From an uncultured Parachlamydiaceae bacterium (lineage in GTDB: Bacteria > Chlamydiota > Chlamydiia > Chlamydiales > Parachlamydiaceae), in contig CAVVXH010000010.1 of the NCBI GenBank assembly GCA_963752155.1, positions 288,001 to 352,000 of the forward strand: 64,000 nucleotides of DNA, in the 5' to 3' direction. Positions 45,973 to 48,908 of this stretch are shown one piece after another. Numbering within the stretch: the stretch's first letter is position 1; each line of letters starts with the position of its first letter. The position numbers and the translations under genes were made by a program. Under the pieces are notes generated by a model. It ran no database searches. It saw nothing but the letters and a program-made list of their open reading frames with translations, and had not been told where the DNA came from.

Positions 45973-48908
45973 CTATTCCAAGCTTTTTGGAGTTTGTAAT
46001 AGAGCCATTAATTTTTCTTCAGATTCTTTAATAAGATCGTTAATCTGTTTTCTAGCTATTCCTCTAGCTGCATTAAATTTCGCCTCATTCCAATTTTGTT
46101 CTCTCATGAATTTATTTCTGACTATAGATAATGCTTCTGCTTTGACTAAAAGGTTAAGTTCTTGCTTAATCTCTTTCTCAATTTCAGACCCAGGAATATT
46201 TTTTTGTTTCTCAAATACTTCGGAAGGATAATTTTTTTGTTCCATGTACCTTTTTTTAACATTTAATTCAGCATCTCCATTTAGTCTAAGTTGAAGAGCT
46301 CGTCTGCTCACATAGGATTTTGCGTTTGGTCCTTTTAAATTTTTATCGTTTATGTTGACTTTGACATATTCTTGGATGGCCAATGCTTTGTAAAATTCGT
46401 GATGGATCTCTTTTGCAATTTTAGAACCCGGTACATTTTGTTTATCAAATTCTTGGGCAGTCATATTATTTTGGGCTAAGTACCTCTTTTTAACATTCTC
46501 TTTTGCCATTGATTTTTCTGCTAAATTTTCTTTAGCTGATTTTAACTCTTTTTCTAATTGTAGAATTCGCTTGTTAACTTGAACTTCAAATTTTGGATCC
46601 TCTAAAATTTTATTTTGAAAAATCTCTTTTAAATCTTTTACAGAGGCATTACGATTTTCTTTCAAGTTGCAAAATTCTTTGAAAACCATTTCTTTATAGG
46701 ATAAACGCTCTTTAATTGAATTCCATTCAGTCTTAAATTCTTTCAAGTTAAGAGGACGATCATTGGGATTATAGGAGAGTCCACGTTGGACGAAATTTGC
46801 TAACTCTTTATCTATTTTAAGCAATTCTTCATATTCCATCGTTTCTAATGCTGTTTTAACTTTCCCATTATTTTTGTTCTCAATCCTAAATATTTGTCGA
46901 AAGGCCACATTTTTAGAATATTCAGTACGCTGACCATCTTTACTCATAGTTGTATCACGATTTGCATTTAGATAACCATCTAGAATTAATTGTGATTGGC
47001 TAAATATAGCAGATTTTTCAGAAGGTACTGCATTTTTCTCTCGTATAATTTTATTTCCTTCTCTTATCATTAATTCTGGAGCTGTAACATCATGAGGAAG
47101 TCTTTGCGAATCAACTATAACTTTTCCATTTTCGGTCATAGTTATAATCCCAAAATCTGTTAATAAAGCTCGAGTTCTTTCGCCGGAGCTAACTTTGATT
47201 TTTTTTATTCCCCAATCTTTAAGTTGTTTTACATCTGCTTCTGAGAGTATCGTTTCTTTTTTATATAATTCACGACCAGTAACCGGTTCATAAATAGGTG
47301 AGCTTACTATTTTTCCTACTAAATTTTCATCAACAGCCATCCATTTTTGAGGATTATGAAGCAAGATATTGCGCATGGAAATGTCGTTATGCAAGATGCC
47401 GAGATCGTTAAGAGCTGAAACGCCTTCGAAAACATCTGATAAGATCTCAGCTTTTTGAGCATCTGAATAGTTATGAAATGAATTTTTCATTTCACCACCA
47501 TTAGCCAATTTTGAAATCACAACGGCCTTTCCGTTTTCTTCGAAAATGTGATGGACTTTAGGGCAGAAAGTGGAAATCAATGGACTATCTTTGATTTTTT
47601 TTGCTACAAGGAGTTCACTTTTAGCATCTTCTGTACTTACATTGTCATACACAACAAGTGCTGCTTCCTTTAATAGACCTTCCTTTTCTTTTTGAGAGGT
47701 TGGGTGTTGAAACACCGCCTTATCCACAGATTTAAATGCACCCTGACCTAAAGGTGTTGTAGTTGAGATAGCTCGTTTTCTTCTTCCATTTATTCGTTGA
47801 TTGTTTTTGAGTGAGAAGCTACATCTATAACTTCAGCTGGTATATCGGAAGAAATTACGATTGATGGTATTTGAAGTTCTTTTGGAGGGTGGTATGCATT
47901 TGGACACAACACTCTTATGGAAGGTGATCTACTAATTGGATAAATTTCTCTTTTACTACATTTTGAGTTTTACTTTCTGTTGAAGAAAGTGGGTGAGAAG
48001 GTATCTCTGATTTTTCTGGCAAAACTTCGTTATAGGGAGAAGAAAATTCTATTTCGGAAGAATCGTGTAGAGATAGCTCTGAATTTTCTCGCAAAACTTC
48101 GCTATGAGGAGAAGAAAATTCTATCTCGGAAGAATCGCGTGGAGATAGCTCTGAATTTTCTGGTATAACTTCGTTATAGGGAGAAGAAAATTCTATTTTG
48201 GAAGAATCGTGTAGAGATAGCTCTGAATTTTCTCGCAAAACTTCGCTATGAGGAGAAGAAAATTCTTATCTCCGGAAAAATCGTGTGTAGATAGTTCTGA
48301 TTTTTCTGTATAACTTCATTATAGGGAGAAGAAAATTCTATTTCGGAAGAATCGTGTAGAGATAGCTCTGAATTTTTCTGGCAAACTTCGTTATGGGGAG
48401 AAGAAAATTCTATCTCGGAAAAATCGTGTGGAGATAGCTCTGATTTTTCTGGTGTAACTTCATTATAGGGAGAAGAAAATTCTATTTCGGAAGAATCGTT
48501 TGAAGGTGACTCAAGCTTCTCTGGTTTATCAGTTTGCTTGGAATTAGAAGAAACATTTTCTTTTGTATTATTAGGTAGAGTTATTTTGTGTTTAGTCAGG
48601 TCAGTTTTACTTTTTATTTGAACTTTTAGCCTATTAGCTTTAGCTTGCTTCTCGATAACTGCTTTTTCTAGAGCTTCCACTGCAATTTTTTGATATAAAG
48701 TCTCTGCTGTTTGATTCCCGCCGCGTGGAAGATTTGATATTTGTGAACGATGCTTGGTTTTGGATTTAGTTGATGAAGCAAGCTCTTTCTTAACATTTTT
48801 ACAAGCTTGGTTTGGATTGAAGGGTGATTCTCCAATAGGATCTTTTTTCTTATCATTAGATATTCTATTGGTGGTTCTAGGGATCGTTAATGCATTATTT
48901 ATTAACAT
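45973..48908 (-). CDS. Large atypical eukaryotic-like protein kinase with N-terminal tandem repeats, frameshifted
   Basis: Fragments 48246-48908, 47915-48238, 45973-47727 are collinear; LGQGAFKSV, HNDISMRN, DFG, APE, NPNDRP. Confidence 0.8.
48000..48503 (-). repeat. About 7 copies of a 72-bp coding tandem repeat (24 aa, e.g. SSPYNEVIPENSELSPRDSSEIEF)
   Basis: Unit starts recur near 48021, 48093, 48165, 48237, 48310, 48382, 48454. Confidence 0.9.

Follow-up and report, generated by a model that had tools for sequence, protein, structure and literature searches.

A eukaryote-type protein kinase with a glycine-loop lysine and a tyrosine-kinase-like catalytic loop in an uncultured Parachlamydiaceae bacterium

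Locus and gene architecture

We analysed a stretch of 64,000 nucleotides (hereafter the window) from an uncultured Parachlamydiaceae bacterium (GenBank assembly GCA_963752155.1, contig CAVVXH010000010.1, positions 288,001 to 352,000), in which a minus-strand open frame at 45973-47832 encodes a eukaryote-type protein kinase (ePK) domain whose resemblance to known kinases is far beyond chance. Together with three shorter frames upstream, this frame probably forms a single gene of about 977 codons that runs from 48908 down to 45976 and appears split in the assembly through insertions and deletions (indels). We see about an even chance that its product is an active, secreted kinase that uses a lysine of the glycine-rich loop (K34) and phosphorylates tyrosine, or tyrosine as well as serine and threonine. 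The data establish the kinase fold, the family, the conservation of its motifs and the errors of the assembly; catalytic activity, the function of K34, the acceptor and secretion are inferred. The protein would then comprise four regions, encoded by one gene that is read in four frames across the assembly indels: a polar N-terminus, acidic 24-residue repeats bearing tyrosines, the kinase domain, and a C-terminal tail rich in lysine and glutamate. The parts of the locus are as follows.

45973-47832, minus strand: open frame from stop to stop, 619 codons, with kinase domain and C-terminal tail (from the list of open reading frames, Pfam and the structure model)
46738-47769, minus strand: kinase domain, residues 22-365 (Pfam Pkinase, E = 2.6e-13)
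45976-46737, minus strand: lysine/glutamate-rich C-terminal tail, residues 366-619, with two copies of a motif of about 40 residues
47790-47912, minus strand: piece C, 40 codons, terminating at an in-frame stop
47915-48238, minus strand: piece B, 107 codons, carrying on the tandem repeats
48246-48908, minus strand: piece A, 220 codons, polar and of low complexity, then the start of the tandem repeats
48005-48499, minus strand: tandem repeat, 72 bp x 6.9 (144 bp x 3.4), encoding acidic, serine-rich units of 24 residues

A preliminary description of this DNA had quoted the motifs LGQGAFKSV, AALVVY, HNDISMRN and RLPHDVTAPE, all of which we found in the kinase-bearing frame. The frame had been described as reaching only to 47760 and the kinase as needing correction for frameshifts; it extends to 47832 and is uninterrupted over its 619 codons, and the breaks lie in 47750-48300. 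At least three frame changes (approximately 48240-48300, 47912-47917 and 47750-47832), all upstream of the domain, and one in-frame stop (47790-47792) separate the pieces, and the repeat array spans the first of these breaks. Piece A is likely the true N-terminus of the kinase protein; it has a weak match to the N-terminal region of one relative, P0003 (tblastn, E = 6e-05). Piece C contains an IP-containing stretch that, judged by eye only, is like the conserved pre-kinase segment of the relatives. When the relatives were compared with 45900-49400 by tblastn, only weak low-complexity matches were obtained upstream of 47780, and piece C had no significant match. In the relatives, 57-504 residues of polar, low-complexity sequence precede the kinase, with which the long architecture proposed here fits.

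The motif duplicated in the tail reads NVKKRY ... F.KQ.N.PGS.I.KEI (internal repeat, score 110), and in an alignment of 14 family members none of the relatives aligns over residues 366-619. Pfam, at E values up to 10, gave no family for the tail, for piece A or for an insert within the kinase domain that is described below. The tail may serve as a host-binding module.

A small kinase family with a conserved active site

The family was delimited with HMMER searches over 1.84 billion (1.84e9) representative proteins, which gave 33 matches at E<=1e-3 and, besides the protein of the window itself, 13 at E<=1e-10. These 13 proteins (P0002-P0014) are 22-31% identical and are matched over the whole domain. 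Two weaker matches, P0015 and P0017, have the same motifs and bring this rare family to 16 proteins, to which one chlamydial fragment can be added. The fragment comes from genome G290, which belongs to a different family within the order; it has 208 residues, sits at the edge of a contig and shares 49% identity with P0006. A 459-residue frame without known family adjoins it (L014, G290:C95). A word-index search with the protein returned only the protein itself, and one with the family profile only the protein itself and P0011. P0007 had no match among genome contigs, and P0003 and a further alignment (A3), run against metagenome contigs, gave nothing relevant and a single match (L113). We rejected this match as a family member because it is an unrelated kinase-like open reading frame (ORF) of 315 residues (L113:5091-6038, plus strand) from a high-GC organism. 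NCBIfam has no family for the kinase.

The eukaryote-like kinase proposed in the preliminary description stood up to both profile and structure comparison. In addition to Pkinase, the frame matches the Pfam family PK_Tyr_Ser-Thr (E = 1e-09), and an AlphaFold2 model built on the 14-sequence alignment, the structure prediction that had been suggested as a check, has the kinase fold with a mean predicted local distance difference test score (pLDDT) of 83.1 and a predicted template modelling score (pTM) of 0.83. Compared with solved kinases, the model reaches Z scores of up to 22.5 (TYK2, root mean square deviation (rmsd) 2.9 over 265 residues). All ePK motifs are present except the beta-3 lysine, which is missing family-wide, and the aspartate of helix F, which is missing only in the window's protein.

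Conservation was counted over 14 aligned members (alignments A1 and A2), with the exception of the catalytic loop, for which 16 members could be compared. Invariant residues in the 14-sequence alignments are G31, K34, K92, H148, N149, D150, R154, N155, D226 and P252. The glutamate of helix C (E73) is invariant in A1 and nearly so in A2, and K55 and E253 are nearly invariant.

A lysine in the glycine-rich loop

The two segments in which the ATP-binding lysine would be sought are located as follows.

47731-47748, minus strand: glycine-rich loop GQGAFK, with the codon of K34 (47731-47733) at the site of the third glycine (position 55 of PKA)
47647-47673, minus strand: predicted strand beta-3, LKEAALVVY, with V60 (47653-47655) in the column of the canonical lysine and K55 at 47668-47670

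K34 is found in all 14 aligned members, and in the HMMER alignment of the family profile it lies opposite the third glycine of JAK1 and FGFR1. The register of beta-3 was determined in the same alignment to JAK1 and FGFR1 and, with the same result, with hhalign against nine canonical kinases. The column of the canonical beta-3 lysine contains neither lysine nor arginine in any of the 14 members; it is occupied by valine in the window's protein and by serine, glycine, isoleucine, threonine, leucine or alanine in the others. The WNK-type arrangement recognized in the preliminary description is thus borne out across the family, and the conventional beta-3 lysine, which that description had named as evidence against its proposal, is absent from its column. 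Its statement that beta-3 has no lysine holds for the canonical position and does not extend to the strand as a whole, as the near-invariant K55 lies five residues earlier.

K55 is also an objection to a relocated lysine. It precedes E73 by 18 residues, which is the usual spacing between the lysine and the glutamate, so that a shifted beta-3 lysine is possible; in addition, 7 of the 14 members have a lysine or arginine one residue past the canonical column. Both observations weigh against K34 as the functional residue. In the model, however, the predicted beta-3 strand comprises residues 54-62 and runs seven residues beyond K55; if this prediction is correct, K55 would be well away from the phosphate site. 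In our reading, K34 would hold the ATP phosphates in a WNK-like manner, paired with E73 of helix C, and phosphotransfer would be carried out by D150, N155 and D226.

In WNK kinases, a lysine at PKA position 55 stands in for K72 and is needed for catalysis (accessible parts of PMC1821047 and PMC4718504), and a survey of 2007, as far as its text was available, lists WNK as the only functional ePK family without K72 (PMC1821047). The family described here resembles WNK in the lysine at the third glycine position, in the absence of a lysine at beta-3 (PKA position 72) and in the retained helix-C glutamate. The two differ in the catalytic loop, which in the present family has alanine, serine or cysteine two residues after the catalytic aspartate (D+2) and an arginine at D+4 in all 16 members. 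The WNK catalytic loop is of the Ser/Thr type, with a lysine at D+2 (HRDLK-type). Further differences are the insert before the DFG motif and the repeat-bearing N-terminus, for which WNK has no counterpart, and the bacterial origin of the family. WNK chains were found neither among the best 60 PDB matches of the window's protein nor among the best 60 of 1718 matches of the family profile. We interpret the resemblance as convergent and not as a sign of common ancestry. A bacterial family with a WNK-like relocation would represent an independent second case on a different catalytic-loop background, and such a case would help to show what in the active site of kinases is exchangeable.

Catalytic loop, P+1 loop and acceptor specificity

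The remaining motifs of the domain, from the catalytic loop to helix F, are located as follows.

47368-47391, minus strand: catalytic loop HNDISMRN, of the non-RD type (asparagine for arginine), without lysine at D+2 and with arginine at D+4
47149-47157, minus strand: DFG motif, with the invariant D226
47074-47157, minus strand: DFG motif, activation segment and P+1/APE region, with P252 and E253 invariant or nearly so
47074-47097, minus strand: P+1/APE motif PHDVTAPE of the window's protein
46969-47019, minus strand: helix F region EKSAIFSQSQLILDGYL, with A275 in place of the family's aspartate and S280 in place of its glycine

In all 16 members the catalytic loop reads HND-x-[A/S/C]-x-R-N, with alanine in 13, serine in two and cysteine in one. 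The A-x-R part of the tyrosine kinase AAR motif is present in the family, while the arginine of HRD is replaced by asparagine throughout. Non-RD kinases are often independent of activation-loop phosphorylation, and the HND loop suggests that this modification is probably unnecessary here too. In the available text of a comparative study (PMC4771162), HRDLAARN marks tyrosine kinases and HRDLKPEN Ser/Thr kinases, the arginine of the AAR motif binds the tyrosine hydroxyl, and the motif is not seen in tyrosine-kinase-like kinases (TKLs). In the P+1 loop, the residue five positions before the alanine or serine of APE is proline in nine and alanine in five of the 14 members, and threonine in none. 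The P+1 loop of tyrosine kinases has a proline, a basic residue and a tryptophan before APE. A basic residue occurs in two of the 14 members only, P0002 and P0003, in which the loop reads P-I-K-E, and the tryptophan is absent from all 14.

The tyrosine-kinase-type signatures of the preliminary description were hence confirmed for the A-x-R loop and, in most members, for the P+1 proline, and did not hold for the P+1 tryptophan or for HRD. The likeness of the family to tyrosine kinases also includes helix F and subdomain XI, which read SDAFSFG ... P..RP, and the differences include the missing beta-3 lysine and a histidine of helix E. Profile comparison points in the same direction. The best 60 of 1718 PDB matches of the family profile are all tyrosine kinases, headed by JAK1 (1.6e-19), TYK2, FGFR1/2, SYK, BMX and JAK2, and all 14 members match both PK_Tyr_Ser-Thr (best 1.3e-19) and Pkinase (best 2.8e-18). 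On balance, tyrosine or dual specificity is a reasonable assignment, albeit a tentative one with clearly less than an even chance. In mechanistic terms, the arginine at D+4 would functionally replace the D+2 lysine and the P+1 loop would begin with a proline; as this is the solution of tyrosine kinases, the acceptor would likely be tyrosine, or tyrosine and serine/threonine.

Several observations weigh against this assignment and in favour of an active, secreted relocated-lysine kinase that is specific for Ser/Thr and in which the tyrosine-kinase-like loop is a convergent replacement of the D+2 lysine. The comparison with kinase profiles proposed in the preliminary description gave a divided answer, as the family profile finds tyrosine kinases whereas the window's protein alone is closest to Ser/Thr kinases of the CAMK and AGC groups (best PDB matches MSK1 (9.6e-06), DAPK1 and CDPKs) and scores better on Pkinase than on PK_Tyr_Ser-Thr. 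The ranking by fold ties tyrosine kinases with ULK1 and PknB, all at Z scores of about 22. The helix-E histidine typical of Ser/Thr kinases and TKLs, termed STK-histidine in the part of PMC4771162 that was available, is kept in at least 80% of the other members (Asn142 in the window's protein), and the P+1 tryptophan is lacking. In addition, the unrelated ORF in L113 has the catalytic loop HNDIAMRN, which demonstrates that an HND-x-A-x-R-N loop exists outside this family, and the bacterial effector kinases covered in the available parts of reviews are Ser/Thr types, with the exceptions of OspG (reported as dual Ser/Tyr) and Lem28 (with a predicted tyrosine kinase domain). Against Ser/Thr specificity stand the A-x-R motif, which, according to the available text of the same comparative study, only tyrosine kinases have and TKLs lack, the lack of a P+1 threonine in all 14 members, and the exclusively tyrosine kinase profile matches among the best 60. 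We consider Ser/Thr specificity possible, if rather unlikely. If the active secreted kinase does phosphorylate tyrosine, intracellular bacteria of protists would write phosphotyrosine signals themselves, not borrowing host kinases.

The ePK fold is known; the family itself, and the combination of glycine-loop lysine, A-x-R loop, non-RD motif and inserted module, were not found described in the literature searched, which covered few subscription journals. Likewise, bacterial eukaryote-type kinases with a tyrosine-kinase-type A-x-R loop were not found in that literature or in the available parts of the reviews of effector kinases.

An insert between catalytic loop and DFG motif

The domain contains one additional element, which is not part of the kinase motifs.

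47170-47355, minus strand: insert of about 60 residues (160-221) between catalytic loop and DFG, predicted to form a small beta/alpha module

The insert is present in 11 of the 14 aligned members and missing from P0008, P0010 and P0014. A model of the insert with its flanks (residues 145-231) has a pLDDT of 86.1, with a core above 93. When it was compared with 48,161 representative chains, 13 reached Z>=5, including MoeA (1fc5; Z 8.5, rmsd 1.0 over 56), the beta subunit of a plastid RNA polymerase (8w9z_c; Z 8.4, rmsd 1.3 over 53), the C-terminal domain of an Orn/Lys/Arg decarboxylase (2x3l; Z 8.0, rmsd 1.1 over 52) and a lobe of the Escherichia coli RNA polymerase (7egs; Z 7.7, rmsd 1.7 over 58), values not far from those that small models attain without being related. 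Still, a genuine fold match is suggested by the low rmsd across almost the entire insert and by the repeated appearance of one small module, and the model suggests that the insert resembles the module of MoeA and the RNA polymerase lobe, which we take to be beta-beta' module 2 of RNA polymerases. As a guess, the insert could provide a docking or regulatory surface beside the ATP site.

Tyrosine-bearing repeats at the N-terminus

In the window's protein, the sequence SSPYNEV occurs in four of the six readable 24-residue units and alternates with SSPH(N/S)EV in the other two, so that every double unit of 48 residues contains a tyrosine. Four further members, P0003, P0005, P0012 and P0014, also have N-terminal tandem repeats, and a tyrosine lies within the repeat unit in all five proteins (P0003, SSYNT; P0005, KGFYRNQ; P0012, HHEYKR and EEDY; P0014, YHFVSS). 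At a tyrosine content of 2-5% and unit lengths of 14-24 residues (48 for the double unit of the window's protein), between a third and most of such units are expected to contain a tyrosine by chance. Because chance occurrence is that frequent and the members are kin, the pattern is suggestive only.

Tyrosine-phosphorylated repeat effectors are known as the EPIYA class, which includes CagA, Tir and the chlamydial Tarp (PMC3593179 and PMC2999339, as far as accessible). The window's protein resembles them in its tandem acidic repeats with tyrosines and its putative delivery, and differs from them in that CagA, Tir and Tarp lack a kinase domain and need kinases of the host, whereas its repeats are fused to a kinase. 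One could imagine a self-priming phosphotyrosine scaffold, in which the protein's own kinase phosphorylates the repeat tyrosines (SSPYNEV) and thereby docks host phosphotyrosine readers without a host kinase. This would in effect be an EPIYA-type effector with its own kinase. We regard the idea as doubtful, and that the repeats are phosphorylated at all is entirely conjectural.

Genomic context and a possible effector role

The genome of this Parachlamydiaceae bacterium encodes SctV, the export gate of the type III secretion system, which together with the taxonomic position makes an effector role of the kinase plausible. In keeping with this position, HprK of the window shares 86% identity with HprK of a Parachlamydiaceae metagenome-assembled genome. 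The kinase lies in a stretch of low GC content (0.33 at 46-50 kb vs. 0.41-0.47 in the flanks), and it is an accessory gene. In a survey with the family profile, in which the top three to four candidates per genome were scored, only 1 further genome among 300 of the order and none of 400 in a sample of the phylum contained a match at E<=1e-20; the same-genus genome G001, which is 99% complete, had no match at this level. A search with the single protein in 40 relatives yielded only weak, generic kinase matches (best E = 9.8e-6), with 1.5e-4 in G001 and no match in the second same-genus genome, G002. The region downstream of PtsI in G001 differs from the window; the contig of G002 ends in a collagen-like gene right before the position of the kinase. 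Five genes with collagen triple-helix repeats flank the kinase (44805-45680 and 50324-55046, plus strand; Collagen, E = 1.9e-08 to 6e-23), and the first of them also adjoins PtsI in G002 (L114).

The eukaryote-type domain, the disordered N-terminus and this context lead us to infer that the protein is secreted and acts as an effector inside a protist. It is probably an effector kinase and would most likely reach its eukaryotic host through the type III system. Export is proposed from context, namely SctV, the taxon, the polar N-terminus, the accessory nature of the gene and the low GC content. Known effector kinases such as LegK1-4, LegK7, Lem28, OspG, SteC and YpkA are similar in having a kinase fold in an intracellular bacterium, non-kinase flanks and a patchy distribution. 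The effector kinases of Legionella, Shigella, Salmonella and Yersinia differ in that they come from Proteobacteria, where type IV or type III systems secrete them, and in the available text on known effector kinases none is described with a glycine-loop lysine plus A-x-R loop. NCBIfam revealed no sequence relationship to known effector kinases, and term searches in the accessible text of two reviews of bacterial effector kinases gave no mention of Chlamydia.

Alternatively, the kinase might belong to the bacterium's own signalling and act inside the bacterial cell. Chlamydiae possess endogenous Ser/Thr kinases, which speaks for this possibility. It is at odds with the lack of conservation seen in the survey of order and phylum, with the low-GC stretch, with the long, disordered, repeat-bearing N-terminus shared with the relatives, and with the outcome of the Pfam search, which showed neither a membrane nor a sensor domain in the protein, and we judge it unlikely. 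Five other Pkinase loci of the genome with readable motifs have H-[R/G]-D-x-K or another non-HND loop.

The region upstream of the kinase gene contains the following features.

49359-50111, minus strand: ORF of 250 residues without Pfam or NCBIfam family
50143-50171, minus strand: strong, near-consensus promoter-like site with 11 of 12 hexamer matches and an extended TG, preceding the 250-codon ORF

The upstream ORF had weak F-box leads in a protein atlas, with scores of 0.77-0.80 that are below the level of trust. No terminator-like site was found on the minus strand within 45600-50400, and the upstream ORF and the kinase gene may be co-transcribed. With 14 promoter-like sites in the region vs. 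a mean of 15.6 in shuffled sequence, such sites are not in excess.

Catalytic competence and integrity of the gene

The preliminary description had pointed to an alanine in subdomain IX and cautioned that the protein could be a pseudokinase. We confirmed this residue as A275 (47008-47010), and it is a trait of the window's copy, not of the family, as at least 80% of the other members have aspartate at this position. A pseudokinase or scaffold, or an enzyme that uses the kinase fold for a different chemistry, would explain the absence of the canonical beta-3 lysine from all 14 members, and several features of the window's protein likewise weigh against its being an active kinase: A275, the loss of the helix-F glycine (S280), and its status as the most divergent member, with the fewest family-conserved positions retained (29 of 39). 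Nevertheless, it keeps all catalytic residues of the 14-sequence alignment, and the invariance or near-invariance of D150, N155, D226, G31, K34 and E73 at 22-31% identity is as expected for a Mg-ATP-binding enzyme. Conservation of these motifs across the family thus argues against a dead pseudokinase, as does the activity of WNK with the same lysine arrangement (PMC1821047 and PMC4718504, in the parts available), and we consider this alternative quite improbable.

The frame changes and the in-frame stop are most likely artefacts of assembly indels, because genes that are indispensable are broken likewise in the same assembly. PF00562, a domain of rpoB, is split over three open frames of 124, 186 and 261 residues (C6:10394-11922), a class-I tRNA synthetase lies in three pieces, and the tail of SctV is split. 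PtsI, next to the kinase in the window (42932-44685), is in three pieces, whereas it is intact, with 582-605 residues, in all four relatives compared. Completeness of the assembly is 80% vs. 99% for the same-genus genome G001. Other genes in the window that look truncated are an FtsH fragment (2351-3082) and one copy of LptF/G (6984-7868), and indel breaks in the assembly (G000) were noted also at C11:321282-323116. Indels in indispensable genes imply that the apparent pseudogenes of this genome are mostly artefacts, and as a lesson for annotation they call for caution.

Sequencing reads offered no help with the breaks: one public run, with 0.08 of the words, gave two identical 151-nt contigs only (46950-47100 and 47202-47352), and nothing covered the breaks. 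A decaying pseudogene with genuine breaks in 47750-48300, which would no longer yield the full protein, might be suggested by the crowding of three or more frame changes and an in-frame stop into some 550 bp, by the divergence of this copy and by the broken neighbour PtsI, but is very improbable given the similarly broken rpoB, tRNA synthetase and SctV, the lower completeness of the assembly, and the uninterrupted 619-codon frame with all its catalytic residues.

Further observations in the window

Beside the HprK-HPr-PtsI cluster, a protein of the SUKH (SMI1/KNR4) type is encoded at 40762-41688 (plus strand), and an ORF for a HicB-like antitoxin lies farther downstream, at 55847-56269 (minus strand). 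A second segment with a GC content of 0.33 (21346-26889, plus strand) encodes an RHS-repeat protein of 1847 residues with a C-terminal DUF687, followed by an ORF of 180 residues, and may represent a polymorphic toxin-like locus. Two unusual fusions were also seen. One, in a low-GC stretch at 12312-14600 (minus strand), joins a pyridoxal-phosphate-dependent decarboxylase to a C-terminal cyclic-nucleotide-binding domain in a protein of 762 residues, and the other (2-2350, minus strand) combines a Mur ligase and an alanine racemase in one frame of 783 residues that runs off the window.

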